A stretch of DNA of 63,822 nt, the filler included, from Psammoneis japonica (lineage: Eukaryota), in NCBI GenBank assembly GCA_008632985.1. It is 4 parts of 4 records of this genome, joined end to end, with 100 filler letters (N's around TTAATTAATTAA, not from the genome) between each part and the next. Parts side by side here need not be neighbours in the genome. Positions count along the whole stretch, not along the records: positions 20,163 to 40,169 come from QPGO01000455.1; 3 more parts are not named here. One strand, 5' to 3'. Numbering within the stretch: position 1 is the stretch's first letter; the number at the start of each line of letters is the position of its first letter. Positions 16,133 to 49,785 of the stretch are shown one piece after another. Position numbers and translations under genes: made by a program. The notes beneath the pieces were generated by a model, which was not told the origin of the DNA, ran no database searches, and worked only from the letters and a program-made list of their open reading frames with translations.

Positions 16133-19100
16133 ATCCATCAAGCTTGCCCCTGTAGAGAATGTTCATGAATTGGAAAGATGGCGAACATGTGCTGAATGAC
16201 TGCAACTTCATCAAGGATGAACAGGGCAACTTAGATCACATGAAAAACTTGGTTTTTCTTGCATGGGGAGGCAGCAAAGATTGCATCCTGCCCCACCCCA
16301 ATGTCAATTTTGTGGTCAATTCAACTGAGAAGAAATTGATTCAAAATGTCATCTCTGTCTGCAAAAGCGAGGATTCAAAGAGGAAGACTGGTCACACCCA
16401 AAAACGGCAAGAGAGTGGGTGCAAGAGCATCGCAGGAACCCCAACTCAGAAAAAGGAGTTGCAAGCACAATGGTGGCCAAATGGAAAACTGCAGACAGCA
16501 ATTGGCAAGGGAGTCCACTGCTTGAGGTGGACAGTGCATGAGGCACATTGTGCTCTGGTGCATTGACAGAACATTGTTGATCATGTGCTGCAACAGGGCA
16601 AGTGTCAGTGGGGTTGAGGCATGGATGGTTGGGGGGGGGGTTGCATCACGTGCGTGTGGGATGAGCACGCATCATCAATCAAATGTCTGGGTGAAGTTGC
16701 AATTTTGTTTGACCATTTTGACCTGTGGGGGTGCGTGCCAGAAATTTAGATGGGGCAACATGGAGACAGCGGCGTGATGCACTGCTGACACATGCAGCTT
16801 CATGTGTCATGAATGGACAGGGAGTCATGATCATGACAAGAAAAGCCTGCCAGCAGAAGACAAGATGCCAACTCTGAAACAAATGCAAGAGGCAGGGATG
16901 GCATGATGGCACAGACACATTTCACCCTCCACTTCCTGCCAATCATGGTGGGAAAGACCATGTGGAAACATTGGCTTAAATCAAGACATTGCTTGAACAA
17001 GTTGGTGTCAGCAAGCAATGAGGCAAAACCCTGCCAGTTTTGGAAAACAAATGGGACAAGTGGGCGCACATGCATGGTGAGACAAAGGAGGAGTTGAAGG
17101 TGGTGAAAACTGAGAATGACATTCTGGAGGCAAAATGCAGCAATGGGAAGGGCTCGGAAGCAAAGTGGAGTCACTGGTGGGACAAGGGTGGACTGACCAG
17201 GTGCAGGGCACCAAGAAAACAGATGCAAGAAAAAAGATTGATCAAGGCAGCGGATGAGTGAAGTGAAGTTTGGTCCAAGGAGTTCCCAAGAAGGAGAGGG
17301 TGATTGTAGATGGACCAAGGAGGGGGGGGGGGGGGGGACAAATGATGGATCCACAAACAGAGCAAAAAAGAACAATGCAACAGCGTGAAATTGTCAGTGC
17401 AGTGGAAACAATCAGGCTCAAGTCATTGACCCACATTTTAAATGAAGGAAGTGCATTTAAAATGAACAAAGCCAGTGTGGCTGCCACCACCAAATGCAGT
17501 GGGAGATGGGTTCCAGCCCCAGGCGGGGCTTTTTGTGACATTGGGCCCACAGAATTTCATGTGCAAGCTCTGCAGCAAAATTGTTGAGCAGTGCAAACAT
17601 GGGTGATTGCCAACAGAAAAAGAGGCAAGTTTGTGAGTGCATCTCCTCCTCCACACTTGAAGCACATTGTGGGTGTAACGCACTCCAGCTCCAGGTGGGA
17701 CCTTGCTCAACTGTGACATCAAGAGTTTTTTGGATCTTGCCGCATGTCGCGCACGCACATTTCTACATGACTTTGGCTTGATTTTGTGTCATTTTGTGGC
17801 ACACTTGAGCACGCAGGAATGTGTGTGTGAAACAAATGGCAGATGACAAAAAACAATCATGTCGCAGTTCAGCAGTGCAACGTCCCACCCAGAGCAGGGG
17901 TGCATTGGGACCCCAAATGCAATGAACCCAAAACCTGCATGGAAAATGCGAGGCAGCCTGCATTTTTTCATTGCCCCCCAAACCAATTGTTCTCCCCTCT
18001 GATGCAAACTCCAGCCAGCTGTCAAGGCAGCACACAACACCTGGAGAAAAAGCACAAGATGAGTGCTGACATTGACAGATCTGTTGTCAAACGATTGTCG
18101 CGCAACTTTCTCAAAAGGAGGTGCAAGCACCCTGGATCAGCACCTGCTCCAACAACAAAAGCTGTTGATGCTGTTTTGGCAGCTGCTTGCTTGCCACAGC
18201 TTTCCTGGCCCAACAGATGGGCAACCCTCCTTGAGCAGCAAAAGGTGTCAAAGCAGTTCTCAAAAGTCAGGTGGCCCATTGTGGAGAGCTTTCAGCTGCT
18301 GAAGTCTGCCCAGCAAAGGAAAGGTTGCACATCAATGGTCAGTTGAGCAGAGTTTGCAAGCTCAAAGACATGGCCACAGGGGAAATTGATTCTCATCCAG
18401 CAAGAGAGTGCAGAGCTGCACAACTCTTGAGAGCCAGCACTGTGCATCCTCCATCAGCCCAACATCTGCAAGTTCTTTTTTGCAAAGCTGCCAGCAGCAC
18501 ACACAAAAAGGGAACAATCTGTTTTCCAAGCTCTCCAGTGCACAAATGACCCATCAGAGAACCTTCTTGTGTGAGCTCACCAAAAACTGGGCTGAAAGAG
18601 CATGAGAGTTTTCCAAACAAAGGGCCACGCAGTCCAGGATGATGACAGATCTGATGTGGGAGATGCTTTTTGGAAAGGACTGCAAGTCCATGGCTCAAAC
18701 TTCAAGCTGCTTGTGGCAGAGGCACAGCCAATGCTCTGCACCAGCTCCAGCCCCTCAACTGAGCTGTCAAAGTTGTGCAGCCTGCACAAAACTCTGAAGC
18801 TGAGGGCACCTGCAGCACTCAACAACTGCAGCATCACAGACAGATGAGGTTGGCACAAAAAGGAAACAGAGTGTGCAGACAGAGCAGAAGGGTGCTTGGC
18901 TTCCTGTGAAAACAGCAGCCTCAGAGAGATGCTGATCTTTGCCAGAGGCTTGTCATTTGCGGACATTGCAATGAAGGCTTCTCGCCAAAGCCAGCAGACT
19001 CAACTCATGGAGCCATGGCTTTTTGGGTGTCTTTGCTCCAAGAGCTTTGTTGTTTGTCAGTTTTGCTTTGTTGTTTTGGGTGGTGATTTCCTTGTTTGCA

Positions 19101-20062: not shown

Positions 20063-20162
20063 NNNNNNNNNNNNNNNNNNNNNNNNNNNNNNNNNNNNNN
20101 NNNNNNTTAATTAATTAANNNNNNNNNNNNNNNNNNNNNNNNNNNNNNNNNNNNNNNNNNNN
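20063..20162. other. Artificial contig linker
   Basis: 44 N + TTAATTAATTAA (stops in all six frames) + 44 N. Confidence 0.98.
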
Positions 20163-20560: not shown

Positions 20561-23500
20561 AAAGCATGTGTGTGGTTTGTTCATTGCAGCAAAAACAACT
20601 TTTAGAGGCACACGTTTTCACGATGATGTTTTGAGCAAAATGCTTGTGCATGCTGTTGTGCAACATGCAGCCACTGACAAGAGTCAATGTGTCACGGCAA
20701 CGTGTCACAGCCTTTGAATGTCACAAAGGGCGTGACAAAAACAACCTTTTGTCTGCATGCACACTGCGTTGTGAATTCATGGTGGAGTGGTGCATCGCAA
20801 CCACTGGGCAGGAGGCCAGGGGTTCAAAACCCGAGTGGGAGTTGTCTGCAGCAACGTTGGTCACTGTTGAACGCGCAAAACTCTGTGCAGTTCTGTGTGT
20901 TCCTTCGCACGCACCCACACTGTTCCGCCAAAACCGTGCAGTGTCAGCACACGTGAGCGCAGGTCGCATGATGCATGGGGAGGAGTGCAACATGCAGCCA
21001 CCAATGAGAGCCAATGCATCACGGCGACGTGTTGCAGCCTTTAAATGTCACAAAGGGCGTGACAAAAACAACCTTTTGTCTGCATGCATGCTGCAGTTGA
21101 CAGCATGGAAGTGGATTTTGACATTGCAGCAACAGAGAGGTTTGAACTGGAATTTGCATGGATTCGAAATTTTCAAAAGACAACAAGGAATGGCAAAATT
21201 GACAAATCATGCACACATCAAAAGATTTGGCCAATTCTTGATTGTGCTGCAATTGAGAAAAGAGAGTCATTGATGAAAAGCATCAGATTTTTGGTGTTGA
21301 AGAGAGGTTTGGAAATTTCCCAATGGTGAAACAAGCTGGGGAACCAAGGCATGGAGCCACCCACAATTGGCAACAGCGGCACAGGCAATGGCAAGGAAGA
21401 AGAAGCAAGAAAGTGCGGGGGTGGCTGGAGATCAACCAGCCAGCCAAAGGCCAGCAGCGGCATTGGTGCGGGTTGGAGCCACTGGGGATCACCAGTCTGT
21501 GAAGCGAGAGGCAGAAGAGGTGGCGCGGAAGAAACTCTTCCCGAAGGCAAAGTTCCTTGTCAAGGCAGACATGGCAAGCAGCAGCAAAGTGTCACGACTC
21601 ATCAGGAAAAAGATGGCCGGCTGCAATTGCAGCAAGCGAGACTGGGCAGGAGCGTGGGAAGACTGGGCAAAGAAGTGTGTCATGCATGCAATTGATGCAA
21701 AAAGGAGCACGGTCACTCAGGCGATCAAGCACAATGCAGCAGCTGGCAAGTGTTTTGTGGTGCACGGCATGTTGAGTGTGGCTGTGCTTGACACTGCTGC
21801 ACCCACATTTGCTGAAGTCGTGTTGACAGAGAACAAAGCCAAGGGGACACACGGTCAGAAGAAACTGGCAGCGAGAGGCAAAGGAGGGAAGAAGAGCAAG
21901 AAGAGGAAGAGGAACGATCAGATGGCAGATGAAGAGCCATTCCTGGTGACTTGGGAGGAGGAGACAGTGACGACGATTGTGGAGGACAAGTGCGAGAACA
22001 AGGAAGCACACACTTGGTTCCATCAAAGCATGTGTGGGGTTTGTTCATTGCAGCAAAAATGACTTTTAAGCGAAATGCTTGTGCATGCTGTCAACAGCAG
22101 CATGGAAGTGGATTTTGACGTTGCAGTGACAGAGAGGTTTGAACAGGAATTTGCGTGGATTCAAATTTTTCAAAAGATGACAAGGGATGGCAAAATTGAC
22201 AAAATGTGTGCATTGAAAGATTTGGTTGATTCTCAACTGTGCTGCAATTGAGAAAAGAGAATCATTGATGAAAAGCATCAGAGTTTGAGTGTCAAAGAGA
22301 CGATTGTGGAGGACAAGTGCAAGAACAAGGAAGCGCGTGCTTGGTTCTACAATTGCAGCAAGTGAGACTGGGCAGGAGCATGGGAAGACTTGGCAAAGAA
22401 GTGCGTCATGCATGCAATTGACACAAAAAGGAGCACGGTCACTCAGGCGATCAAGAACAATGCAACGGCTGGCAAGTGTTTTGTGGTGCACGGCATGTTG
22501 AGTGTGGTTGTGCTTGACACTGCTGCACCCACATTTGCTGAAGTGGTGTTGACAGAGAACAAAGCCAAGGGGACACACAGTCAGAAGAAACCGGCAGCGA
22601 GAGGCAAAGGAGGGAAGAAGAGCAAGAAGAGGAAGAAGAGTGATCAGACGGCAGATGAAGAGCCGTTCCTGGCAACTTGGGAGGAGGAGACAGTGACGAC
22701 GATTGTGGAGGACAAGCGCAAGAACAAAAAAGTGCACGCTTGGTTCCATCAAAGCATGTGTGGGGTTTGTTCATTGCAGCAAAAATGACTTTTAAGCAAA
22801 ATGCTTGTGCATGCTGTCAACAGCAGCATGGAAGTGGATTTTGACATTGCAGTGACAGAGAGGTTTGAACTGGAATTTGCATGGATTCGAAATTTTCAAA
22901 AGATGACAAGGAATGGGAAAATTGACAAAATGTGTGCATCAAAAGATTTGGCCAATTCTCAACTGTGCTGCAATTGAGAAAAGAGAACCATTGATGAAAA
23001 GTGTCAGATTTTCAGTGAAGAGAGGTTTGAAAATTTCCCAACGGCGAAACAAACTGGGGAACCAAGGCATGGAGCCACCCACAATTGGCAACAGCGGCAC
23101 AGGCAATGGCAAGGAAGAAGAAGCAAGAAAATGAGGGGGTGGCTGGAGATCAACCAACCAGCCAAAGGCTGGCAGTGGCGTTGGTGCGGGTGGGAGCCGT
23201 CGGGGATCACCAGCCCACAAAGAGAGAGGTGGAAGAGGTGGCACGGAAGGAACTCTTCCCAAAGGCAATGTTCCTTGTCAAGGCGGACATGGCAAGCAGC
23301 GGCAAAGTGTCATGGCTCATCAGGAAAAAGACAGCCGGCAGCAATTGCAGCAAGCAAGACTGGGCAGGAGCGTGGGAAGACTGGGCAAAGAAGTGCGTCA
23401 TGCATGCTGCCAATGCGAAAAGGAGCATGGTCACTCAGGCGATCAAGAACAATGCAACAGCTGGCAAGTGTTTTGTGGTGCACGGCATGTTGAGTGTGGC

Positions 23501-23900
23501 TGTGCTTGACACTGCTGCGCCCACATTTGCTGAAGTCATGTTGACAGAGAACAAAGCCAAGGGGACACGCGGTCAGAAGAAACTGGCAGCAAGAGGCAAA
23601 GGAGGGAAGAAGAGCAAGAAGAGGAAGAAGAGCGATCAGATGGCAGATGAAGAGCCGTTCCTGGCAACTTGGGAGGAGGAGACAGTGACGACAATTGTGG
23701 AGGACAAGCACAAGAACAAGGAAGCACGTGCTTGGTTCTGCGAAAACATCCTGAAATTCACAAAGAGCACCACGACATGGAGAAGGAAGGCAGAGTCGGG
23801 TGAGACAAAGGCAACCGGTCTGGCTGCAGTGAGCAATGAGGCTCTGGGGCTGTTGATGTTGGAAAACTGCTGGAAGAGTTGGGAGCACAAGGCCCGTCAT
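20561..23900 (+). repeat. Tandem triplication (units start ~20561, ~22025, ~22751; middle unit internally deleted) of a repeat-borne unknown gene
   Basis: aaagcatgtgtg.ggtttgttcattgcagcaaaaa starts each unit; ORFs 21367-22062, 22390-22788 and 23085-24065 are near-identical in their shared parts. Confidence 0.85.
20659..21095 (+). mobile_element. Miniature LTR element (TRIM-like), copy 1
   Basis: Two ~110-bp direct repeats with outer termini TG...CA; GGGGAGGAG polypurine tract directly before the 3' repeat; TSD GTTG; empty sites in paralogous units at ~22085 and ~22810. Confidence 0.88.
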
Positions 23901-23960
23901 GACAAGACTGTTGGAGCTGGGGGGGGGGGCTCAGACAAAGAGGATGATGGGATGAGGTGG
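23085..23960 (+). pseudogene. Unknown repeat-associated protein, most complete copy
   Basis: LFPKAMFL...WEDWAKK...KRS.VTQAIK, a basic NLS-like run, AWFCENILKF, VSNEALGLLMLENCW; a diverged homologue lies at 42607-43260. Confidence 0.55.
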
Positions 23961-25369
23961 GTTTGGGTGGATGGCTGGTCAGATGTGGCATTGTTGCCTG
24001 ATTTTGGCAAATTGAGAAACTGGATGGCCTGGGTGGGATCCATGATTTCCGGGTTGCTTTGTTGATTGGTGACCTGTGCAGAAACAGAGAATGAGCACTT
24101 AAACCTCAGAGATGGAGATTTTCTGTGTGTGCAAAAATTGCAATTTTGGCATCGCTCCCATTGAAGCTGCCTGTGTGCGTTTCTACACGTGCTCTGGCAC
24201 AGATGCCTCCCTTCTCAAACGGTGTGTTGCTTGGTCTCACACGCTCCTTTCGGGAACATCCACCAATGGCACACCCTCATTTCAGCATGACAAGTGATGT
24301 TTCTCAGTGGAAAACAACTGGCGTCGACGCCTCATGGGTCGCAAGCTGCTTGTCTTTTCTGGTGATTTTTTGCCGATTCAGAAATTTTTCCACTCAGGAT
24401 CCAGTGCAAATTCTGCGCATTTCAGGAATTGACACCGACAATCGACTTTTCAAATCTCTGAACTGTTCATGCCCACACCTGCCTGTTCTCAGCAACCCCC
24501 CTTCTTCCTGTTGGCCAACTGCAGTCTTTCCTTCATGTGGGGAAAGAAACATTTCCATTGATGCACTTTTGAGTGTGAGATTGAGCTCTCCCTTGGAGTC
24601 ACTTGATTTTCGTCCATCCGCTGCACATGTCGGCACTTCTGCGCAGAACCCAGTGTCGTTTCTACATGTGTCAAAATTGCCGCCATTTTCCGATGCGTTG
24701 CAACATCAAGATCTGCCCTTCCATGCCTGCAAGTCCAGAACGACCTTCCTTCTAATTGCCAACACACCAAGCTGCCTCCTTTGAGTGGCGAACATTCTGC
24801 TCTCGTTCCAGCCCTGCAAAGCATGAAATCAAGTCTGTCTGTGTTGATGGCGCATGCCTGTCACGGAAGCAAATGTTCTGCCCCAGATTCAGTGTTGGGT
24901 TTTTCTACGTCGGAAGTTGCTGTTGCCAGCTGTCACCCTGTCAAGTTCCCAAGTCATCCATCCCCCTGTCTGCCAGTTCCCAGCAACCATCCTTCCACTG
25001 CTGTCTGCCAGCAATTCAAGATCACTGTTCCAAACTGTGCACCCCACACTGTGGTGGCTGCACTCAAGGGTTTGGAGTTCCCGTGCTTTCTTCAAGGTGC
25101 GCTGCTGTTTCTGAACCAAGTTCTTCTGAATGTCATTGTCTTTTGATGTTGTTTTGTGGCCACCATGGCTCCTTTCTCAACGAAAGCAAGAAATCCTTTT
25201 AAGTGTTGTCATCTCAACGTCGTCTTTCACTTTGGCTGGGCATCATCTGCTGCAGATGGTGCCTTTTCTGGCCAGTTGACATGCATCCCTGCCGCACGCA
25301 GGTGCACTGGGGGTGTGGGTCAGCTTGTTGCCAGAGTTGCAGGGCGGGAGTGCAATGGCACCTTAAAAA

Positions 25370-25710
25370 CAGATTTTTGGTTTTGTGTGTGCAAAAATCA
25401 TGAGCTTGTTTTACGCAGAGCATGCGCACGTGCGACAGCAAGACATGTGGAGTTTGAGTCCTTTCACGGAATCAGTCATGCTCGGTGCTGTGTGCATCCT
25501 GCGCATGCCCTTCATGCAAGGTGAGTCACGTGCGCGATGGCCAGTCGCGCCGGTCTCAGTCGCGTGGATCTCCCGTAGACCATCGCAGGTCTTGCGCCAG
25601 GAGTCGCGTCGTCCAATGCGTGCTTCTGCGGGATCAGCGTCGCTGTGGACAGCCTGCAGATGCAGGAAAGTGGCATCATCGGCGGCCACGGCAGGGATGC
25701 CTGCTGCACT
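25370..25710 (+). repeat. Dispersed repeat shared with 28513-28877; its start also occurs at 24071-24145
   Basis: tgtgtgtgcaaaaat...gcagagcatg...gcgcatgcccttcatgcaaggtgagtcacgtgcgcgatgg...ggcggccacggcagggatgcctg present in both long copies. Confidence 0.8.
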
Positions 25711-28700
25711 CGCCCCTGTGACAAGGTCGCACGAGTGACAGAAGGGTCCTGCTGCTGGAAAAAGGACATTTTTTTGGTGTGTCCAAAAAACCAGCACACA
25801 TGCCTTCTCATGCACGAAGGATGTCATTGTCATTGTGACCATTTCAGCAGACATTTCCCCACTCATGTGTGCGTCAGTCGTTTTTTGAGCTGACGTCATG
25901 AAGCGGAGCATGCACCTCCTGTTGCGCGTGGCATCTGACGTCATCAAAGCTTGCTTCTTCGACTCGCTCGGCGTGCGACTCTCACGACTGACTCACAGCA
26001 GTTGTTTGGGGCCTTGCGTGGAATCATCGGATCATCTGCCGCACCACACAGCGGTTTCAGCGTGAAAACGGTGAGCGTGTCTGTCTGTGAAAAAAAATTG
26101 TTTGGGTGTGCCACATGAATGAGGAATTGGGAATTTTGGAATCTTCAAATTGTTGAAAACACAACACTGTCACCGCACAAAAAAAATTTGTTGCTCAGAA
26201 CCGCAGTCACCATGAATCGACAACAGCCTGTTCTGCTTCATGCAAACTGCTGACACTGAGGAAAAAATGAGATGTGTTGTCGTTCATGGTGTTTTCGAGG
26301 CAACACATCGTTTTTTCCTCAGTCAAAGACATTTTGATGCCGTTGTTGTTGACATGGTTGACAATGGCGGATGGAATCTTGCTTGTCTAGAATTCCATGT
26401 GAAGAACGCACCAGGTGTCGGCGTCAATTTCTTTTTGAGATGTGTTCCACTGTTGTCACTCCATTGACCATTGCCATTCTTCTCGGCGTCTTGCTCGAAG
26501 TGTCTCACATCTGTCAGCTCCCTGACATGTTGTGCTGCCTGATTGTGTGGCGCCATTTCCTGAGTGGAGCTGCACAGACCAACAGCATGGTTTTTTGCAG
26601 CCGCTCTGATCAACCACACTGTTTGTTGTCAAGAAATCCAACATCAGGCAAACAGCTCAAGGATTCAGGGGAAACATTGCAGCATCTCAATGATTCCGAA
26701 TTCTTTGCAATGCAGGAGGCACTCATGTGCAGACTGTGGCATTGGAATCTTGCTGCAAGAAGGTGACTTTCACATCTGTTTGCAGGCAAATCCAAAATGT
26801 TTTCTGACTCGCCCATGAACCAGATGACATTGAGCCATGGGAATCTGTTTCCAGCAAGTGAAATGACTCCAATGTCAATTCATGAGTGAGCCATGCAGCT
26901 GTTGCAGACATCTGACACTTGTGAGGACGATTCTCAAAGCCACAACTCTCAAACACCAACGAGTCACCAGTTGTTGATGGGGTGCAACCACAAGCTCTCC
27001 TGCAGAAGAGCATCATTGTTGTGCCAACAAGCCAAACAACAAAGCCCTGCTCTGCAAAACTTGCAGAGCAAGAGTTCGATGCCGCACAGCAAGGAATCAA
27101 GCTGCTGGAAAACTGCGTCCACGATGCACAAGACACAAGCTTGCATCTGCCAATGTTTCTCTGTCACCCCCAGCAAATTGCACAATGAGCGGCCCACCTT
27201 CCTTCCACCACAATGGTTTCCACTCAACAGAATCTCCAAGAAAAGTCTGTTGCAAGGACAACGAGCGTTGCGCCAATTCTTGTTCTTGACAAATGTCAAG
27301 GCGCGCTTCACGAAAGCCACCATCCCTCCCAACATTCTTGGCATGCATCGCTGTTTGTGTGCTGGCAAAACACAAGTCACAACCATGCCATTGAACAAAC
27401 TGTGAAAACGAAGCATCCGATCGACTCACCATGGGAGCCATGATGTGTGAAATGGGAGTGAACATGCCAAAACAGAAAGAAAAGGTGAAAAGAAGTGAGC
27501 AGCATGCCGGCGGAGAAGCGCGCTGCTCCGATGCATCATGCATGGGCAAAAAGCCCACTGTGAATCAACCCCATTTAACAAGAATCAGAAATGACAAAAG
27601 AATGTAAAAGCAACCCTCTTGTTGTCTTGTTCCTTTGCCATTGTCATGGTGACATGACAGCACGGCGGAGATGGAAAAAAGGTGAGAGATTGGGCAATGA
27701 GCACAGTTCACCGTTCTCCCTGAATCGTGTGTTGAAACCGCTGTGACCACTCTTGAGGGTCGCCTTGAGGGTCATCTTGCTTGAGGGTCATCTTGCTTGA
27801 GGGTCATCTTCATGAGGCACGGCACTGTGCGTCAGGTCAGGCAGAAGGTCTGTGACGTGTGCGGGATGCTGTGCATTGGAATGGCGCACAACATGGGCAT
27901 TAGCTCCAGGCCCTTTTTTGCAGGCCTTGCAGAAATGTGATGTCCATTCTACGTCCCAGAGACGTGGAAAATGTGCCATGGGCAATGTCACAAGTCATTT
28001 TCTGTTGACACTTTGTCTTGGGCCGTTTGGCACATCCAAGCTGCTGTTTTTGTGCAGTTTGCAGTGCTGCCTTCTTGGCAGTCATCAGTGTCAGCATCTT
28101 TCTCACCGGTGATGAATGAACTTAGAACAAGATTCTCAAATCGCTCACGAAACACAACATCTGCGGCGTTCGTGTCGAGCGGGTTGAACACTGGTGCTCT
28201 CATCTCGCGCTGACATCACGAGGTGTGCCACATTCAACGTGATTGATTCTCTCATTGTTCTGCATCGCTTTTGGTGCATCACCACCATTGTCAAGCGGCA
28301 AGTTCTTTGAATTTTGCTCGTGTGCGTTCTTCTCACCGCAAGAGTGCCATTTTGGCGATTTTTTGTTTTCTGCACTGCACTCCCAACTGAACAGTCATGG
28401 AGAACAGGAAAGTGACACAATGCAGCATCTTGCTCTTCTCTGCAGAACGGCTGACAATCATGGTGAGCCAAATGAAGGCTGTTTTTGCACTTGCCGGAAG
28501 TGACATTGCTGTGACCTGTGCAGAAATGGAGAACAAGTGCTTGAACCACAGAGACAGAGATTTTCTGTGTGTGCAAAAATTGTGAGCTCATTTCATGCAG
28601 AGCATGTGCATGTGCGACAGTGAGACATGCAGAGTTTGATTCCTTTCGTGGAATCAGTCACACTCGGCACTGCGCACATCCTGCGCATGCCCTTCATGCA

Positions 28701-28949
28701 AGGTGAGTCACGTGCGCGATGGTCAGTCACGCCGGTCTCAGTTGCATGGATCTCCCGCAGACCATCGCAGGTCTCGCACCAGGAGTCACATCATTCTGCA
28801 GGATCAGCGTCACTGCGGACAGCCCACAGACGCAGGAAAGTGGCATCATTGGCGGCCACGGCAGGGATGCCTGTTGCATGATCAGCGACCCCCCAAGTGA
28901 CTCGTGTTTCACCCAGGAACGGGTGGGAATGATTCTCTTTTCATTCCAA

Positions 28950-31900
28950 CCTTGCAGCAAGAACCTTTGTGACAGAAAGAATGACAACAACAAGTTCTGT
29001 GCCACCCGCCAGTTCTAAGATGACAGAGCACCACATCAATGCATGTGCGCATCCAGGCTCTCTTCCAGTTTGTACACCCTTTTGGACCTGCCGCAATCCA
29101 AAATGACTCGGGCTTGATTTGTGCTTCAAACAAAGGCATTGCACTGCAGCATTTGCTCTGCACTGAGACTGCACCACCGGTCTCTGTTTTCTTTGGTTTC
29201 CTTTCGTTCAAACCACCAAACCCGAGCAACAATCCATCCAGCATTGAATTGATTGGTTCCACAAACTCCCCCTTCCATCAATTTTTGAGGCTTTTCAAGT
29301 GACCAAGCAACAAAACAATCATCGTCAGGATGCATGCTTTTTTCTGCAGGATGAATTCTCACAATTGCAATGTCTCCTCTCTGAAGCCAATTGCAGAAAT
29401 CTTCCAACATGTGCCCGCCCCTTGTTTCCACTGCATTTGACGGTTGTGCTGGTTCGATCCGCACGGGTGCTGGCAGCGGGCCGCAAAGCCTTGTGAGTTC
29501 ACACTTTTTGTGCTGGCCTTTGAGGCAAGTTTCACAAGTGCAATTGTCCCGCCTGCAAATCAAATTTGAATCCGTCGCACTGCCACCAACAGACATGTAG
29601 AAGTGATCCAAGCTGGATCCTTTGTAGCCTCTCTTGGCATTGACAACTTGCTTGTCAAATGAATCAGAAGGACAGCACAAACAAACACAAAGATCCACGG
29701 CAAATGTTCCATCCTGCAAGCTTCTCATTTTTCCTTCTGGTTGCTGTGTTTTTCCAGAGCACCTTGTTTTGCCGCCGACATGTGCATGTCAAACTTCTGT
29801 CCATGTGTGAAACCATCAGCCGTGCATTTGCCATGGTGAGCCGGGTTTTGCATGTCTTCAGCTTCCACACCGTTCCTTGCCTGGAAGGTTTGCCAGCCAA
29901 AAAATGCTTTCATTCCTTGATGCTGTCCTTTGCAGCCATTGCATCGACATCGCAGTCGACGCATCATCCCAAAACAGTGGTTCCGGGGGACCGCTCCAAT
30001 CCATCAGGCCACTCGGCAATGGAGGATCTGACTCACTTCTGATTCCTCCGGGTGGTTGCTTTTCGTTGAGAAACGCCTCTCCTCTGCTTCCATTGGTGAG
30101 TTCCCCCTTTTTTGGGATGGAGATGACGTCAGTCACAGTGGTGTGATCACAAGCCGTGCTCCCGGATGTTTTGCTGTGTGCAAAAAACACCATGTTCTTG
30201 GCATGCATGAGTCGTTCCATGCCTTGCTTTTGAAGCTTCTTGGCAGCTCTTGGATGGTTGGTGGCAATTGACTCCACCGGCTCAACACAAGGGCTGTGTG
30301 TCACGTGTGCAACGTTTCAGTTGTGAGTTTCCGGATGGGAGCATGTCTTGTCGTGCTTCCGCATGGAATGGAGAACAGAGGAAAAGTTGCTCTGTGCATG
30401 TGCCACGTCTTTGAATTCATCTGGGCAGCTCTCATCTGTGGCAGGAAGGTGCAAGAAATGTCTGATTTCTCTTGGCTTCAAGCTCTGGTCATGCTTGACT
30501 TTCCAGCAGTGCTTGATGCAGTCCTCAAACATGTCCTTGAAACAAAACATAAATTCTTTTTGAGTGCCAACAACAGGAAGCCATTCTTCCTGCATTGTGA
30601 CTCCATTGTCACCGTGCGTGCCATCGTCGTCTTTCGCTTTGCTGTCTTTGCTTGACAGTCGAGCCACCTTGACCCATTTCTTGCAAATGAAGTGGTTGTC
30701 TGTCGTTTCATTGGGACAAGCACGCATCTTTCGGGTCATGCCATCACCAGTTGCTGGATCCATTTCAGTTGGTTCATCCACACTGAACTTGTTCCTTTGG
30801 TCCACACACTCCAGTGGCAGGGTCTGTTCACTCGTCTTCTGGCATGAGGCGCTTGCAAGCACCCATGCAGCAACGCCTCTTGAAACAGCAAAAATTGTTT
30901 GTGTCTGGGACAAATGATTCACCCCCATCCTCGTCTTGCTCTGCAAGGAGGTTGCCGTCCTCATCTTTCTTGCACACCGAATTTCCGTTTTTGTCAATTG
31001 CAGGCAGCAACAATTCTGGTGTTGTCTCCGGCTCACACAAAAGCTTCTCTAGACAGTCGCGAGCTGACGTGGAAAACTTCCCGCACACAGAATGACGGTT
31101 GCAGTTTCTGTGACATTTCTTGCAGGACCAGTCTCCAGATGTTTCAGCAGCACCCTCCATCTCTCGTTTTTTGACTGCTTGACGAGACCACTCCCTTCTG
31201 GCTTTGTTGCACAGTTGCAAGGATTCCGTGAATGCTGTGCACTTTGGGCACGAGCAGAAGCATGTGGCCATTTTCCACAAGCATGGGCAATTGCAACTGT
31301 GGAGAAGCTTTGAGCTCCCCTTTGTGCCATTTGGCCTGCTCAGCAATTTTGTGTCCTCCTGAATTTCCTTCCACACTGGACACGGTTTGTTTGGCTTGTC
31401 AGGATCAGCTCTGCTTCGACCCGTGAGCAAATCAAACACTTCTTCATCTGGCATCAGCATGCATCGGGCTTCGTGGAGATCATGCATCTGTTGCCCTTCA
31501 GGCACAACACCCACCGGCACAAAGTCCTCACGTTTGTTCACATTGTCTTGCTGCGACACTTCATCGGAATGCACAGCACTGGCAGAAACAGCTGCAGACT
31601 CATCACCTTGGGCAGCATTCGATGCATGTGGCAGCACGCAACCAAAACAATGAAGCAGGTTTGAGGACTGACGAGCCGGGGCAGTGGCATCCTCCCCAGT
31701 GTTTTGCTCCGACAGCCACTCTTCGAGTGAACAGAACATCAGATCCTCGTTGGAATGTTTCAGCTTGTCCACAAAGGCATGCAAGAAACGATTCACCAGT
31801 GGCACATTCTTCTGGCCCTCTGGTGCTTCATTGTTCAGAATTTCAGAGATCATGGCAACACCGTCGTCGCCAAATTCCTGAACCCATTTGTCCTCAACAG

Positions 31901-32560
31901 CCACTCCATCCTGAGCCGCAGTGGTGCACTCCTCTAGAGCCTCTGCCACCAGGTCATGTTCTTCAAGATCTGAAACAAAAGCACTGCCCTTCGCGGGTTC
32001 CCCTTTGAGCCAACAGGAACAAACAAGTGATGCCTCCTTCTGTGACTCCTCGCAATCTGCCTCATGTCATGCTCCATTGTCCAGAAGTCCCTGCAGCTTG
32101 CGCAAAATTTCTTCATGTTCCTTTTTGATCTCCTCATTGATGCTTTCCAACGCGGCTGCTTTGCAGTTGTCAAAAACTTCAACGCACTTGTTGAACATTT
32201 CCGTGTCGCAACTGGAAGTGTCCATCGCTCCTTCATGAGGTCTCGGCCTTGCATTGCTTGATGGAATGGAAGTGGGCACAAGAGTTGGGTCCCGGCCACG
32301 AAATCGACCACCCGAAACAGAAGCTGTGAGTGCTTCCGACTCACCCATTTGGGTCTTGGTGGTCGTGTCCATGCGCGGTGCTTTGCATGGATGAGATTGG
32401 CCGCATTTGCATCTCTTGCGCTCCCGTTTCTTCTTGTTTGGTGTTTTTTTTGCTTCCTGGACAAAGTGACAGTTGCAGCAATCACAACACCTTGTTCTTT
32501 TGCACCCCACAGAGTCGCTGCAGCTTGGCTGCGTGATGCAGCCTTGCAGCTCACTGTGTC
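28950..32560 (-). pseudogene. Sola2-like DDE transposase relic
   Basis: Ordered motifs CFCSCPKC, QS(N)FS, RC(N)GCKGQ(H)QG, PAHHGKCTADG and C-terminal CTCETC resemble the DF...DG..GQYK...HGKG..DG pattern I associate with Sola2. Two expected Asp positions read Asn, consistent with CpG->CpA. Confidence 0.55.
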
Positions 32561-32929
32561 ACGGGACAGTGTGTGAAACCTGAGTTGCAATGGACGGGAC
32601 CTCTGAACCATTGGTGACCGGATCTGGAATCAGCTCGTCGAGCTCATTCCAAATCCGTGCTCAAATGGATCGGAGCGGCTGTCCTCCCTTGCGTCTGTAC
32701 GTCGTCCGCACTGAATCTTGTTTTGCCACCAGTGGACACTCTGGCTGGCCAACCACCCATTCCCATGGTGAAAAATTGTGTGCTGCAACATGTGACAAAA
32801 AATCACGGTCTGCACAACCATCAAGGATTGAAACCTTGACATTCATGCCCACAATGGCAGCAAAAATTGCCCATGAGAAGGGTGGCCAGGATTGCCACAA
32901 TTTTTGCTCTGATGTTGTTGCATTGGCTG

Positions 32930-33940
32930 ACAAACAGTGCAAACAAGTCACATGTTTCCAGGTTGTGCACTGCCCCACAGCCAAAAGAAGCAATCTTTGC
33001 CTTTAGAGCCGCCATGAACAGTTGGGGAGAAATGTCGTCAAAACTGCCTGATGATGTGTTTGAGCTCTTGAGAGCTCGTCCAGCTTGAGACATCACAGCT
33101 CCAAGTCACCATGTTTGTCGTGAACTCTTCCTGATGCTGTGTCTGTGACTTGGCTGCGTCGTTGAATTGCCGTGGCCATCGCACTTCAGAAACGACATTC
33201 TTGACAAGAAAAAGTGTCTCTGGGACACCTCACAACAACAGAGACCCTGCAGAACAAAAGAACAATGTGGAAAGAGAAATTGCATGCAAAATGAATGGCT
33301 GCAAACATGTGAAGCCTCGACAAAACACACAGCACGAATTGCAGTGCATGAGGTTGGTTGTGATGCAACAGAAGCAACGTTGTCAATGCGAGCCTTCAGC
33401 AAGAATTTTTGCCATGATCTGCCCATGTGAGCCTGGATGTTCTCGAGCTTGTCTCGCAGAAGATGATGTGACAGTGCCGAGCTCCGTTGAGAGCATCCAG
33501 GTTCTGACCTGGAGATGATCACATTTTTCAATTTGGCAAAACGCCGTTGTTCGCGCCATTTTGCATGTCATTTTGAGCTGCGAGCCAGAGAACACTTCAA
33601 AAAACTGTTCTGCAGGGCAAAGTGCACTGAATCTACACAGGTTTGGGTTGTTCCAGGCCACGTAGAAAGTGAACGGGCCAAAAACTCTGGTGCACCCACT
33701 CAGACACATTCAACAACTGACTGACAACAGACCAGTTGACTGGTTTCCCAAAGCGTCGCTTGTGCTGTGCCCTTCCCCAGCTGCTCTCCGGCTGGCACCG
33801 TGGGACGCAGTCATTCAATTTAGATTGTGCCCGCAACGTCATTTGCAACAAACGTGACTGCCACCCTTCACACATTGTCTGCCAAACAGGTGTTGGCTCC
33901 AGCTCAGGTGTCTCAGTGCAACCCGCCACGTGGCTTTCCT
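32930..33940 (+). repeat. Dispersed composite repeat, also at 35848-36360 and 37895-38675
   Basis: Shared blocks gtcacatgtttccaggttgtg..., gttgagagcatccaggttc.gacct..., ctgcagggcaaa.tg..ctga.tct.cacag.tttgggttg. Confidence 0.8.
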
Positions 33941-34336
33941 GACGCGTTCCAGCCCTGGGTGGGAGCTCGCAGTGCTGACGTGTGAAAACAACAGCTTTTG
34001 TCATCCGTCGCATGTTTCGCACGTAGATTTCCACGTGTGACATTTAAAAAAAATTGTCCAGACTCGCTGTTTTGCGAAGCCCCAGACGTTTTACATGACA
34101 AATTTGTGGAAACAACAATGCGCCAGTTGCATTCTTCAATGTCTGAAGAACGCAACTGGCTGAGTAAAAAATGATGCACTTCAATCATGTGCGAGTTTGT
34201 GCGTTCGCAAAATTGCCTCATTTTCTGTTGGCGATCATTGACATTTTAATTGCCGCAAAATTTTGCTGCGGAGCTCGCACGCAGAAGTCTGCGGGCCCAA
34301 TGTCACACAGATTCCCGCCTGCATCTGGAGCGTGTC
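33941..34336. mobile_element. MITE, same family
   Basis: TSD TCCT; empty-site paralogue tggctttcctcatcccccaac at 36311-36331. Confidence 0.88.
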
Positions 34337-34611
34337 TCCTCATCCCCCAACCCACTGCCCCCCTCCTCCACTTTCCTGCCGATGGGCTCCAGCCCTGGGT
34401 GGGACTTTTTGTGACATTTGCCCCGCAGAATTCCATGTGCGAGCTCTGCAGTTTGCACTCTGGTCAATGGACATGTTTGTCTTTGACACAAAACAAATGG
34501 CCAAGTTTGCAGCGCGCGCATCTCTGTTCGCACTCGAAGCTGCAAAGGGTCCAAAATGGCAGAGGGCACAAAACCACAATGGCCAAAAATTGCTGAAGGC
34601 ACAAAATCATG

Positions 34612-35058
34612 TGCAACACACAGCTGCCAACAAGAGCCAATGCACCACGGCGACGTGTTGCAGCCTTCAAATGTCACAAAAGGCATGACAAAAACAACCT
34701 TTTGTCTGCGTGCATGCTGCATTGTGAATTCATGGCGGAGTGGTTCATCGCAACCATTGGGCAGGAGGCCAGGGGTTCGAAACCCTGAGTGGGAGTTGTC
34801 TGCAGCAACGTTGATCACTGTCGAACGCGCAAAACTCTGTGCAGTTCTGCGTGTTCCTTCGCACGCACCCACACTGTTCCGCCAAAACCGTGCAGTGTCA
34901 GCACACGTCAGCAAAGAGCCGCATGGACGCGTGGTGCATGGGGAGGAGTGCAACACACAGCTGCTGATGAGAGCCAATGCATCACGGTGACGTGTTGCAG
35001 CCTTTAAATGTCACAAAGGGCATGACAAAAACAACCTTTTGTCTGCATGCATGCTGCA
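34612..35058 (+). mobile_element. TRIM-like element, copy 2
   Basis: LTRs 34612-34721 and 34949-35058; PPT 34940-34948; TSD CATG. Confidence 0.9.
34733..34784 (+). promoter_or_regulatory. tRNA-type (Pol III type 2) A box and B box inside the TRIM
   Basis: TGGCGGAGTGG (34733-34743) and GGTTCGAAACC (34774-34784), 30 nt apart; identical in copies 3 and 4, one CpG-type change per box in copy 1. Confidence 0.6.
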
Positions 35059-35315
35059 CATGAGGGGCACCAAATGCAGCTGAGGGCCCAAAACCAAAAA
35101 AGGCACAAAATGGACAAGGGCACAAAGCCACAAAGGGCGCAAAATGGCCAAGGGCACAAAACCATGAGATGGGGCAAAGTGCTCAAGGGCACAAAAAAAG
35201 GAAAGGGCACAAAACAGCCAAGGGCAACAAAAGGTCAAGGGCGCAAAATCAAGAATTGCGCAACATGGCTGAGGGCACAAAATCTCAAAGGTGCCCCCAG
35301 CGCCAAACACTTGCA

Positions 35316-40169: not shown

Positions 40170-40269
40170 NNNNNNNNNNNNNNNNNNNNNNNNNNNNNNN
40201 NNNNNNNNNNNNNTTAATTAATTAANNNNNNNNNNNNNNNNNNNNNNNNNNNNNNNNNNNNNNNNNNNN
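40170..40269. other. Artificial contig linker
   Basis: Identical 100-nt linker. Confidence 0.98.
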
Positions 40270-40666
40270 GTATGTCGCGCACGCACATTTCTACGTGATT
40301 GTGTCGAAATTTTGTGTGATTTTGCAGTGCAATTGTCAGGCCATGCATTGACCAACTTTTGACATTTTTTTCTTCTGCGCCATTCTCGAGTGTCTTGAAA
40401 ATGGCGCAGGGCAGGCATGTTGTCCAAAACTTTGAGCACCTGCATGGACAGATGTGCCACAAACTTGGCCGTTTTTTTCATGTTGAAGACAAATGTGTCC
40501 ATCAACCAGAGTGCGAACTGCAGAGCTTGCAGAATTCCACGGGGCAAATGTCACAAAAAGTCCCACCTGGGGCTGGAACCCGTTGACATGTTTGTTTTCC
40601 TTGAAGCCACATGTTTGTTTGCATGTTTGTTTTCCTTGAAACCACACATTTGTTTCACTTGAAAAC

Positions 40667-41056
40667 GATGGGCTCCAGTCCTGGATGGGACTCTGTGTGA
40701 CATTGGGCCCACAGAATTCTGCGTGCGAGCTCCGCAGTGTGAGAATTTGACCAATGGGTGTGTTTGTCTTCAACATCAAATGAGCTGCCAAGTTTGTTGT
40801 GCAATTGTGCCTCTTGCCACTTGACGTTTTTGCAGGTGCGCCTGCCCTGCGTGACTCTCAAGACATTGTAGAATCGTGTTGCAACAAAAAATGTCAAAAG
40901 TTGTTGGACGGATCGCTCAATGAATGCACCGTAAAATGACAAAAAATGTCAAAAAAATCATGCAGAAATCTACGTGCGCAACATGCGACGTGATTCAAAA
41001 AACTGTCGATGTCACAGTTCAGCAGTGCGAGGTCCCACCTGGACCTGGGGCGCGTC
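40667..41056. mobile_element. MITE, same family (other partial or composite copies at 13213-13327, 17505-17905, 34381-34540, 36361-37763, 40270-40584)
   Basis: Both family termini present (GATGGGCTCCAG...; ...GGTCCCACCTGGACCTGGGGCGCGTC); no TSD recognisable. Confidence 0.75.
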
Positions 41057-41208
41057 TGTCATCATCTCAAGTGGTGAACTGCAGTGTCTTGAGTGCTCAA
41101 CATCCAGTCTTGAGTGGCAGGCGCCATCTTGAGTGGGGCCCCTGGCAAATTTTGTCTCTGTTGGCTCTGTGCTGTCTCGAGCGGCAAACATCCAATGTCC
41201 AATCTAAC

Positions 41209-41862
41209 GTTTTCCTTGAAAACACATGTTTGTTTTCCTTGAAACGACATGTTTGTTGTCCTTGAAAAGACATTTTTTTCCCCCTTGAAATGACATGTTT
41301 GTTTTCCTTGAAATGACATGTTTGTTTTCCTTGAAATGACATGTTTGTTTTCAAGACATGTTTGTTTTCCTTGAAACGACATGTTTGTTTTCATTGAAAA
41401 GACATGTTTGTTTTCCCTGAAAAGACATGTTTGTTTTCCTTGAAACGACGCGATTGTTTTTCTTGAAATGACACATTTGTTTTCCTTGAAAAGACATGTT
41501 TGTTTTCCTTGAAAAGACATGTTTGTTTTCCTTGAAACCACATGTTTGTTTTCTTTGAAATGACACGTTTGTTTTGTTGAAAAGACATGTTTGTTTTCCT
41601 TGAAACGACACGTTTGTTTTCCTTGAAAAGACATGTTTGTTTTCCTTGAAACGAAATGTTTGTTTTCCTTGAAAAGACATGTTTGTTTTCCTTGAAACGA
41701 CACACTTGTTTTCCAGAAAAGACATGGTTGTTTTCATTGAAACCACATGTTTGTTTTCCTTGAAACGCCGCGTTTGTTTTCCTTGAAAAGACATTTTTTT
41801 CCCTTGAAGCGACATGTTTGTTTTCCTTGAAACGACATGTTTGTTTTCAAGACATGTTTGTT
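41209..41862 (-). repeat. 23-bp satellite array (short array also at 40585-40665)
   Basis: Unit GTTTCAAGGAAAACAAACATGTC on the - strand. Confidence 0.95.
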
Positions 41863-41919
41863 TGACCTTGACATTGAAGTCTTCTCTGCAGACAGGCCCA
41901 AGTCCCACTCTGGCACTCA

Positions 41920-42235
41920 ACTCACCTTGCGCGCGCAAAAGCACCCTGATTTTCAAGTCAGGGAAAACAACAGAGTGCGCGCTGTTGGGGTCAAACTGGC
42001 GAGGGGTGTCGTGGACAGTCAGCTCACTTGCTCACAGTTGGCTGGGGCACAGCAGGGTGTCAGTCATTCTTTCCCTGAAAAACACAGCCTTGTGGGCTGG
42101 CAGTGGGCGTGGCTGTCCATTGGCTGGATCAACCCACATGGCAGCAGCCACGCAAATGGGGACATTCCTCATTGGCGCGCACTCTTTGGAGCAAGGATGC
42201 ACTGCAGCAGCGTGGTTGCTGACAACAATTTGTTC
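41920..42235 (-). pseudogene. Diverged Copia protease-region fragment
   Basis: VHPCSKECAPMRNVPICVAAAMWVDPANGQP...TDTLLCPSQL parallels 44180-44460. Confidence 0.75.
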
Positions 42236-42606
42236 AATGTTGTGGAGAAAAATGGAGTGGCTGGCTGTCTCAACACGACCCAAATGACGGCTGCACTGTC
42301 GAACAGCAATGCTCCTCTCATTGTTGCTGGCCTGTTCCAGCTCCAGGTGCTCTGCTTTTCATCACGCGAGAGGCCGATTTTCTGCGCAGTTTGGCGCAAT
42401 TGACTCCTTCAATTTTGATCGTTTCGAAAATCGAAAGGTGAGTGTACACCCGAAAATGCATGCAAAGTGCACACTCACCCTTTGATTTGCCAAAAAACGG
42501 ATTTGGAAAAAGTCAATTGCGCCAAATGCACAAATTTCCAAATGATGGGAATCGAACCCGCGCGGAGCACCTGGAGCTGGAACAGGCCTGCTGTGAAAAG
42601 ATCAAG

Positions 42607-45549: not shown

Positions 45550-45809
45550 AAACAAACATGTCTTTTCAAGGAAAACAAACATGTCATTTCAAGGGGAAAA
45601 AATGTCTTTTCAAGGAAAACAAACATGTCGTTTCAAGGAAAACAAACACGTGTTTTCAAGGAAAACAAACATGTCTTTTCAATGAAAACAAACATGTCAT
45701 TTCAAGGAAAACAAACATGTCATTTCAAAGAAAACAAACACGTTGTTTCAGGGAAAACAAGCGTGTCATTTCAAGGAAAACAAACGTGTCTTTTCAAGGA
45801 AAACAAACA
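45547..45809 (+). repeat. 23-bp satellite array
   Basis: Same unit; abuts and truncates the Copia ORF. Confidence 0.95.
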
Positions 45810-49783: not shown

Positions 49784-49785
49784 GA

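Follow-up and report, generated by a model that had tools for sequence, protein, structure and literature searches.

The LTRs of a very abundant TRIM-like family were probably mutated after insertion by a DNA-level process that turns TpA into TpG or CpA within a compartment of the genome. The window, that is the whole stretch of 63,822 nucleotides that was analysed, is drawn from four contigs and holds three independent insertions of the family. The changes found in these elements took place after insertion, are transitions only and hit both strands, and they lie in a region nearly without TA that ends at a sharp boundary. We propose that the two LTRs of each copy would be identical at integration, and that the copies would have inserted into a compartment where TpA is converted to TpG or CpA on the DNA itself, a change of A→G on either strand running far above ordinary mutation speed, with ordinary decay of CpG to TpG or CpA operating in parallel. 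Nearly all of the about 10 TA steps per LTR would be lost, in each LTR independently. Hits on opposite strands in paired LTRs would give a TG/CA swap, and a site mutated so far in one LTR would show TA opposite TG or CA, as at a slow TTTAAA site. By our own arithmetic, an indirect estimate of the rate sets a TA loss of ~0.93 per LTR against a background of ~1% per site per lineage, roughly a 100-fold difference.

Structure and copies of the element

Copy 1 (437 bp, plus strand) spans 20659-21095, with a 5′ LTR at 20659-20768 and a 3′ LTR at 20986-21095, and is flanked by a perfect 4 bp target duplication, GTTG, at 20655-58 and 21096-99. Copy 2 (447 bp, plus strand) lies at 34612-35058 (5′ LTR 34612-34721, 3′ LTR 34949-35058) and has a perfect 4 bp target duplication, CATG. 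Its site was also found empty: a contig of run X1 connects 34607 to 35059 and omits 34608-35058, four letters being shared. Copy 3 (443 bp, plus strand) occupies 49925-50367 (5′ LTR 49925-50032, 3′ LTR 50260-50367), with ACGG as its perfect 4 bp target duplication. Copy 4, on the minus strand at 56503-56945, is an inverted segmental duplicate of copy 3 with identical flanks. The two arms of this duplication (49731-50446 and 56424-57139, 716 bp) differ by one TG/CG difference and one transversion, all TG/CA states being common to both, which shows that these states are inherited. Copy 4 is not an independent insertion, and the number of independent insertions is three. No further copy or solo LTR was found in the window, and exact-pattern scans of metagenome contigs and viral contigs gave 0 matches to the element. 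The preliminary description had rightly taken the repeats as true LTR pairs of separate insertions, and was short by one copy. The single span that it gave, 20659..35058, is not one element: its first position is that of copy 1 and its last that of copy 2, and 13.5 kb of unrelated DNA separates the two copies.

The LTRs are 108-110 bp long, against about 100-250 bp for TRIM repeats, with TGCA at the start and TGCA at the end, except for the 5′ LTR of copy 1, which terminates in CG. A polypurine tract adjoins the 3′ LTR (GGGGAGGAG in copies 1-3, at 34940-48 in copy 2, and GGGGATGAG in copy 4), and a TGG-initiated stretch is found 11 nt past the LTR. The internal part carries motifs that resemble the consensus and are candidate tRNA-type A and B boxes. 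ARAGORN found 0 tRNA genes in the window, where Rfam returned nothing at gathering score, and Rfam matches to copy 2 at E≤10 were at chance level only. None of the ORFs overlapping the elements had a Pfam match. Being 437-447 bp long (well under 1 kb) and devoid of coding capacity, with TG..CA repeats, a target duplication and a polypurine tract, the elements have in common with TRIMs their tiny size, their non-coding nature, the terminal direct repeats, the tract, the duplications and non-autonomy. They differ from them by a target duplication of 4 bp. No primer-binding site complementary to a tRNA was recognised, though the TGG-initiated stretch past the LTR may be a candidate. Identity with retrozymes was rejected: there is no hammerhead in the repeats (no such family was found at gathering score in the window or at E≤10 in copy 2), and CTGATGAG is present in just one of the six LTRs.

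Differences between paired LTRs

The two LTRs differ at 14 of 110 positions in copy 1, 9 of 110 in copy 2 and 16 of 108 in copy 3 (8-15%). All 39 differences are transitions, with 0 transversions and 0 indels. Other repeats in the window carry 117 transversions among 499 substitutions, so that 39 transitions out of 39 would be met by chance with a probability of ~3×10−5 (our own arithmetic). Twenty-two of the 39 fall in 11 adjacent TG/CA swaps (5 in copy 1, 2 in copy 2, 4 in copy 3), among them cTGaCAag/cCAaTGag and atgTGtc/atgCAtc, which had been reported earlier and are both present in copy 1. All three elements have swaps at columns 16 and 19 (permutation P = 3×10−4), and in 4 of 6 LTRs the state differs between neighbouring swap sites that are 3 bp apart. 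Three more differences, one per pair, are at a single surviving TA, hereafter the focal site; 4-5 are due to CpG decay, and 6-7 are background transitions. Six of the seven background changes that were polarised are AT→GC at non-TpA positions, and the specificity of the process may therefore be looser than strict TpA.

At the focal site, coordinates and states were all as first described: TG at 20715-16 against TA at 21042-43 in copy 1, CA at 34668-69 against TA at 35005-06 in copy 2, and TG in the 5′ LTR against TA in the 3′ LTR in copy 3. One LTR of every pair retains TA, as proposed for a TA ancestor, and this means that TA went to TG twice and to CA once, after insertion and on either strand. 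These are three polarised events, and all three TA losses are in 5′ LTRs, which is not significant, yet not symmetric. In the genome contigs aligned to copy 2, every alternative letter among those listed stayed below 4% at 35005/35006.

The focal site is the sole surviving TA of the LTRs and lies in TTTAAA. TA survival depends on flanking sequence, TTAA being the most resistant context: the survival index is 0.069 for TTAA, 0.03 for CTAA/TTAG, at most 0.007 for ATAN/NTAT, and 0 for ATAT. Among 13 sites with TA left in one copy, 7 are TTAA and none is ATAN.

Regional composition

TA-depleted, TG/CA-enriched DNA extends from 1 to 62450. In its four contigs (1-20062, 20163-40169, 40270-60185 and 60286-62450), TA is at 0.076, 0.041, 0.031 and 0.049 of expectation, respectively, and TG and CA are at 1.58-2.0. 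Non-element DNA flanking the insertions is equally TA-free. For the whole window, observed/expected ratios are 0.063 for TA, 1.66 for TG, 1.64 for CA and 0.52 for CG, with TG and CA counts near balance (6295 and 6731). Composition switches sharply at ~62,450-62,560, where TA passes from 0.049 to 0.625. The normal DNA beyond (62451-63822, plus strand; CG 0.99, TG 0.98, CA 1.13) is in view over 1.4 kb. It contains the only intact ORF, P0001, which starts at 63102 and runs off the window end; P0001 has one relative (JGI), 33% identical, and weak, sub-threshold Pfam matches (DpnI, E = 0.005), and an atlas search gave no informative neighbours. The 131 ORFs of the TA-poor DNA gave nothing above Pfam cut-offs, only weak low-complexity matches, and no viral domain. 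The targets of mutation in the window are repeats, satellites and a TRIM.

Family-wide contig data

About 1,266 contig pieces were aligned to copy 2, with weights given by k-mer depth, so that neither copies nor events are counted; the pieces are not independent, and run X1 may be the source of the assembly. All alternative letters, among those listed, are transitions. Subtracting CG from TA leaves a positive residual at 12 of 14 dinucleotide sites and a slight CG excess at the other 2. At the swap columns the family-wide surplus of TA over CG is just ~2-16% of depth, and unmutated masters must therefore be rare. Four internal sites (34830, 34866, 34909 and 34912) have TA in 37-49% of family depth and CA, never TG, in all window copies. 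This one-strand pattern looks like subfamily descent. Shared, strand-asymmetric changes had been opposed to the chromosomal reading in the preliminary description, and these four sites come close to them.

Ancestral state of the swap sites and alternative explanations

If CpG methylation decay alone were at work, the swap columns would once have been CG, with 5-methylcytosine deaminated on either strand, and the focal TA would be secondary. A TG/CA swap is predicted alike from CG and TA ancestors, and decay has left clear marks: beyond the low overall CG ratio, CG falls to 0.03 of expectation at 60286-62450 and 0.1 in some 1-kb bins, its loss being uneven between regions; single differences in other repeats are most often CG against TG/CA (118 cases); the 4-5 LTR differences assigned to it are clearly of CpG type; and column 7 has one CG among TG/CA. 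About one of the 11 swaps probably arose in this way. The remainder are too many, however. Taking the number of swaps expected under uniform CpG decay as S²/8R, where S is the number of single-CG differences and R that of retained CGs, the LTRs' own CG retention predicts 1.4 swaps, against 11 seen, and seven other repeat pairs show 56 for 16.7 expected. By the preliminary description, CG at the swap sites of unmutated copies would speak against a TA ancestor; none of the 36 cells in the six swap columns holds CG, which is kept in 18 of the 24 cells of true CG columns (Fisher 1.5×10−10). Over 10 swap-type columns and six LTRs, the only CG cell is that of column 7, and 3 TA cells are counted for the 2.4-3.6 predicted from a regional survival of 4-6%. 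The ratio of swaps to single-TA differences gives, by our own arithmetic, a per-copy TA loss of 0.94 in the LTRs (11:3) and 0.95 in other repeats (56:13), which matches 1 minus the regional TA observed/expected. Moreover, CpG decay leaves TA at 0.03-0.08 of expectation unexplained, would take at least three steps from CG to produce TA against TG/CA within all three pairs, and does not account for a family residual lying mostly on the TA side. We hold it improbable as the sole cause. These counts suggest that TA rather than CG was ancestral at most swap columns; for an individual swap this would be a statistical assignment, which assumes roughly uniform CpG decay within the LTR, the unmutated state not being seen in the window. 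A test on swap flanks did not discriminate, the share of ATAN (21 of 44) being that of the background TG/CA contexts (~46%).

A TG or CA present at insertion might also have been turned into TA by an ordinary G→A or C→T change and resolved at once, half of such cases appearing as swaps. This scheme requires TA hypermutability alone, which is well supported, and from the transition rate in other contexts we estimate that it might yield about one third of 61 swaps in other repeats. It is nevertheless quite improbable for the LTRs, since it predicts swaps spread over the 27-29 TG/CA columns per LTR, against the recurrence of columns 16 and 19, and since the 6-7 background transitions are too few to supply 11 swaps. 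Editing of RNA or cDNA before integration, by an ADAR-like enzyme or a deaminase acting on single-stranded cDNA, agrees with the preference of ADAR for a 5′ U, as stated in a recent preprint (10.64898/2026.01.13.699255), and the one-strand CA pattern at the four internal sites, shared by descent, could stem from it. For the differences between LTR pairs it is refuted, as it has no way to make the LTRs of a single insertion differ, to yield TG at one site and CA at another 3 bp away in the same LTR, or to remove TA from flanking non-element DNA on four contigs, and overall we consider it very unlikely. Changes made at the stage of reverse transcription, with TG falling to the 5′ LTR and CA to the 3′ LTR, were rejected as a model because the orientation is mixed. 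Least credible is a sequencing or assembly artefact, by which a modified-base TA would be miscalled TG or CA according to the read strand. A palindromic modified step miscalled according to strand would indeed give TG or CA and never CG, and the sole read evidence (X1) may be the assembly's own source data. But copies 3 and 4, in opposite orientation and at different loci, agree in every TG/CA state over 716 bp, the disagreement between swap sites 3 bp apart is unlike a local strand-majority effect, and 97% of the sampled 31-mers of the tested stretch occur in X1 contigs. In addition, the available text on Bigelowiella natans describes the same changes as heritable mutations in Illumina-sequenced lines (10.64898/2026.01.13.699255). 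The TA ancestor and the chromosomal, rather than RNA-stage, mutation put forward in the preliminary description are supported.

Comparison with known systems

RIP, in fungi, changes C to T mainly at CpA, enriches TpA and lowers GC. The window has in common with it a DNA-level, transition-only hypermutation of repeated or foreign DNA, sharp compositional boundaries and a saturated dinucleotide target, but the sign is opposite, TpA being destroyed and CpA/TpG created. As a result the RIP indices are inverted (TpA/ApT = 0.08; (CpA+TpG)/(ApC+GpT) = 1.71), and identity with RIP was rejected, the TpA, CpA and TpG ratios of the window being the reverse of RIP. Methylated-CpG decay and TpA loss are alike in that a self-complementary pyrimidine-purine step becomes TG or CA depending on the strand. 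In the window this decay is a second, slower process, which explains neither the TA loss nor the swap excess.

The only account of A:T→G:C hypermutation targeted to nuclear DNA that a literature search returned is a 2026 preprint on one alga (10.64898/2026.01.13.699255). According to the sections available, mutation-accumulation lines of B. natans yielded 231 mutations in hypermutable regions, of which 230 were A→G or T→C; all GC-biased ones were on TpA, and clusters poor in TpA and rich in CpA+TpG were found. The substrate was integrated viral DNA (two viral insertions), and the authors propose that an ADAT/TadA-like enzyme deaminates adenine to inosine (Mettrop et al., bioRxiv 10.64898/2026.01.13.699255). 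As far as these sections go, both systems share the TpA target, TpG/CpA products by strand, changes from AT to GC that run counter to the usual bias, confinement to certain regions, a long-term loss of TpA with a gain of CpA+TpG, and TE-type sequences among the depleted ones (10.64898/2026.01.13.699255). The substrate differs, non-coding repeats and a TRIM family in the window against viral genes in B. natans, and so does the depletion, near saturation here (Rho 0.03-0.08) against 0.45 in the B. natans NCLDV region and a cluster cut-off of 0.43 (same source). Unlike what those sections describe, CpG is also purged in places in the window. The flanking-base hierarchy (ATA/TAT fastest, TTAA slowest) is seen in the window, and none is given in the main text of the preprint, although its Table S2 might contain one; conversely, de novo events were observed in B. 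natans, whereas the window displays a long-term signature only (10.64898/2026.01.13.699255).

The process acting on TpA in the window may be a defence aimed at repeats or foreign DNA. With slightly less than even confidence, we picture a repeat-directed, RIP-like defence of opposite sign, in which an enzyme would mark or deaminate TpA in silenced DNA, A-TA/TA-T fastest and TTAA slowest, and which together with CpG decay would leave just TG and CA. Its chemistry could be adenine deamination to inosine (ADAT/TadA-like) or an oxidised thymine (5hmU/5fU) mispairing with G, between which the sequence cannot separate. Dinoflagellates have 5-hydroxymethyluracil, a thymine modification that is reported to favour TA and TC steps and is linked to the silencing of TEs; a mutational consequence of this base is not described in the part of the source at hand (PMC11572971). 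If thymine were oxidised at TpA, T→C changes could follow on either strand and leave the footprint that the window shows.

The window would display the long-term end state of TpA hypermutation on ordinary repeats, with four contigs nearly without TA and a sharp boundary against a gene. If so, and if its host is other than B. natans, the process reaches past that species and past viral insertions. Since LTR pairs are identical at insertion, every mismatch within a pair marks a dated change that arose in the DNA after integration; such pairs constitute a clean internal control, which the available part of the B. natans preprint does not use (10.64898/2026.01.13.699255). The abundant TRIM family would then offer hundreds of dated LTR pairs for measuring how fast the enzyme works, how evenly it hits the two strands and which sequences it prefers, and candidate enzymes could be told apart by the footprint left in the flanking-base hierarchy of surviving TA. 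Dating by LTR divergence in such DNA would grossly overestimate insertion ages. Lastly, DNA free of TA has no TAA or TAG stop codons, and long spurious ORFs therefore arise in all six frames.

A family of very small LTR elements

Reading of the region and a search of the window gave four copies of one element family, each 437 to 447 bp long, with direct repeats of 108–110 bp that start with TG and end with CA, about 225 bp of internal sequence, and a purine run, GGGGAGGAG, adjoining the 3′ repeat. Copies 1 (20659–21095), 2 (34612–35058) and 3 (49925–50367) have perfect 4-bp target duplications on both sides (GTTG, CATG and ACGG, respectively). Copy 4 (56503–56945, minus strand) lies within an inverted segmental duplication, with arms at 49731–50446 and 56424–57139, and shares the flanks of copy 3; it is therefore not a separate insertion. 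Among contigs from a public run aligned to copy 2, one joins 34607 straight to 35059, with four shared letters, and is the empty site of copy 2. The flanks of this copy (34560–34611 and 35059–35300) are themselves repeats made of GGGCACAAAA-type units. Since the depth of the empty-site contig is around 1000, many uninterrupted copies of the flank are present in the genome.

The repeats that the preliminary description called LTRs are thus real long terminal repeats of very small elements; its span of 20659–35058 is not a single element, but runs from the start of copy 1 to the end of copy 2. No coding capacity was found when ORFs of the element were scanned against Pfam, and neither a tRNA nor a ribozyme was detected in it by ARAGORN or Rfam. 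The element fits the description of TRIMs, save that a primer site complementary to a tRNA was not recognised. In the internal part, at 34733–34790 and at the equivalent places of the other copies, are motifs which we take to resemble the A and B boxes of tRNA genes (TGGCGGAGTGG ... GGTTCGAAACC), and no tRNA was called there by either program. No unmutated element was found among the window copies, or by exact-pattern scans of metagenome and viral contigs.

Paired LTRs differ by transitions only

The two LTRs differ at 14 of 110 positions in copy 1, 9 of 110 in copy 2 and 16 of 108 in copy 3. Each of these 39 differences is a transition; there is neither a transversion nor a gap. This is not due to chance (about 3×10−5 by simple arithmetic), because 117 of 499 substitutions in the other repeats of the window are transversions. 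Single changes were polarised by the remaining five LTRs. Twenty-two differences form 11 adjacent swaps, in which one LTR reads TG and its partner CA, and three fall at the focal site, the aligned dinucleotide where one TA survives. Four correspond to CpG decay, one is a CG/TG difference of ambiguous direction (column 7), three are A→G or T→C changes making a CpG, three are other A→G or T→C changes, one is G→A, and two, at column 25, were left unpolarised. Swap columns 16 and 19 recur in all three elements (permutation P = 3×10−4).

Outside TpA and CpG decay, six of seven polarised post-insertion changes (columns 4, 33, 62, 97–99 and 108, for example 34710, 34645 and 50023) were A→G or T→C, a hint that the AT→GC process also acts, more weakly, on secondary targets other than TpA.

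TA rather than CG as the probable ancestor of most swaps

A swap between once-identical LTRs would need one change in each LTR, starting either from TA or from CG. We favour TA for most swaps, because CpG decay is too slow, no CG is left at the columns that swap, the quantitative fit is good and survival depends on context. With S single-CG differences and R retained CGs, and assuming uniform decay per copy, CpG decay is expected to yield S²/8R swaps, that is 1.4 for the three LTR pairs, where 11 were observed, and 16.7 for seven other repeat pairs, where 56 were observed. At the six columns with a swap inside a pair, CG was found in 0 of 36 LTR cells, compared to 18 of 24 cells at four true CG columns (Fisher test, 1.5×10−10). 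From the ratio of swaps to single-TA differences, TA loss per copy comes to 0.94 for the LTRs (11:3) and 0.95 for the other repeats (56:13), which equals 1 minus the regional TA observed/expected ratio. Over ten swap-type columns and six LTRs, 3 TA cells and 1 CG cell remain, and regional survival predicts 2.4 to 3.6 TA. For any given site the ancestry is a matter of statistics and supposes a roughly uniform CpG decay within the LTR, although CpG loss varies between regions; a minority of the swaps (about 1–2 of the 11) may have arisen from CpG instead, or by a flip-flop via newly made TA.

About 1,266 contig pieces of the family were aligned to copy 2, and all alternative letters listed were transitions. 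TA exceeded CG at 12 of 14 dinucleotide sites (paired letter shares, sign test, 0.013); these shares are depth-weighted over contigs of a run that is possibly the assembly's own source, and are neither copy counts nor independent. The family-wide data therefore agree with a TA ancestor, as a weaker line than the others. At the focal site (35005/35006 in copy 2), every alternative letter listed stays below 4%, so that TA dominates family-wide, TG and CA being derived states there. Re-reading of copies 1, 2 and 3 confirmed all the dinucleotide states quoted in the preliminary description, and the TA ancestor that it proposed is supported by these results.

Survival of TA depends on flanking bases

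A survival index was defined as TA/(TA+TG+CA). Survival of TA strongly depends on context, the index falling from 0.069 in TTAA to about 0.03 in CTAA/TTAG and about 0.02 in CTAG and in CTAC/GTAG, then to at most 0.007 in ATAN/NTAT and 0 in ATAT. The last TA of the LTRs sits within TTTAAA. Among sites where TA was kept in one repeat copy, 7 of 13 were TTAA and 0 of 13 ATAN.

The elements lie in TA-poor DNA

The window counts 275 TA, or 0.063 of expectation, with observed/expected ratios of 1.66 for TG, 1.64 for CA and 0.52 for CG; TG and CA are in balance. The N blocks at 20063–20162, 40170–40269 and 60186–60285 each consist of 44 N, TTAATTAATTAA and 44 N. This linker is a six-frame stop, and contributes 9 of the 275 TA. 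The window is thus four contigs placed end to end in order of decreasing length (the first three of about 20 kb), not one continuous locus, and the TA ratio is 0.076, 0.041, 0.031 and 0.049 in the successive contigs. The depletion ends abruptly in the interval of about 62,450–62,560. On the left side the ratios are 0.049 for TA and 0.031 for CG, and near 2.0 for TG and CA; on the right side all four are close to normal, at 0.625 for TA, 0.99 for CG, 0.98 for TG and 1.13 for CA. Given this depletion on all four contigs and its sharp end, the elements therefore sit in DNA whose TA turned wholesale to TG or CA, and the mutation proposed for the LTRs belongs to a regional phenomenon on a much larger scale.

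Within the TA-poor DNA (1–62450), the extent of CpG loss is very variable, CpG being nearly extinct as well (0.03–0.12) at 60286–62450, 2001–3000, 9001–10000 and 18001–19000. The content of this DNA is satellites and dispersed repeats. Large arrays of a 23-bp satellite occupy 45.4–45.9, 48.5–49.1, 51.2–54.4 and 57.7–58.8 kb, with more than 230 register-shifted matches in both orientations, inside nested inverted duplications. TAA and TAG are nearly absent from the TA-poor DNA, so stop-to-stop ORFs are inflated (143 of at least 130 aa over the six frames of the window), and gene finders would over-call there. Among 131 ORFs scanned, no protein domain reached the Pfam cut-off in TA-poor DNA. Just beyond the boundary lies an intact ORF, P0001 (63102–63821, plus strand), of 240 aa and continuing past the window end. 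It has one relative (33% identical, 579 aa), and a weak, sub-threshold likeness to DpnI-type methyl-directed endonucleases (E = 0.005).

A chromosomal process acting on both strands

Editing of the RNA or cDNA intermediate cannot account for these observations, as it can neither make two LTRs of one insertion differ nor strip TA from flanking DNA. A base-calling artefact at modified TA is unlikely: copies 3 and 4, at different loci and in opposite orientation, have the same TG/CA state everywhere across 716 bp, and in 4 of 6 LTRs, swap sites next to each other do not have the same state. We conclude that the process is chromosomal and real, in line with the mutation of chromosomal DNA suggested initially. 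The proposal that either strand was hit also holds, since TG and CA outcomes are found 3 bp apart inside single LTRs, which implies that both strands mutated.

Four internal sites, 34830, 34866, 34909 and 34912, have T, making TA, in 37–49% of the family contig depth. The window copies read CA there, except that copy 1 has a G at 34909; a G as second base is rare. The one-strand TA/CA pattern at these sites looks more like subfamily descent than independent hits, and may also come from a one-strand process.

Relation to known systems

A search of the literature for a TpA→TpG/CpA signature led to papers on RIP and to one preprint that bears directly on it. RIP has the opposite sign, as it makes TpA. 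The preprint, by Mettrop et al. 2026 (10.64898/2026.01.13.699255), reports in its main text that in mutation-accumulation lines of Bigelowiella natans, two integrated viral regions took 231 of 302 nuclear mutations, at a rate about 1000 times background. All but one of the 231 (230) were A→G or T→C, the GC-biased ones all on TpA; 124 genomic clusters were TpA-depleted and enriched in CpA and TpG, reverse-transcriptase and DDE domains were over-represented among TpA-poor genes, and an ADAT2-like adenine deaminase was proposed. The footprint is the same as in the window, whereas the targets here are non-viral repeats, depletion is far deeper (0.03–0.08 versus 0.45), CpG is lost alongside, locally down to 0.03, and a hierarchy of flanking bases is visible, of which the main text of the preprint makes no mention. 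We rate the process in the window as of a kind so far known from that one preprint, to which the LTR pairs add a dated internal control, together with an enzyme footprint. Oxidised thymine is an alternative chemistry, as a T→C change of TpA, whichever strand it strikes, yields identical products; in dinoflagellates, 5hmU is reported to prefer TA/TC steps and to mark silenced transposons (PMC11572971).
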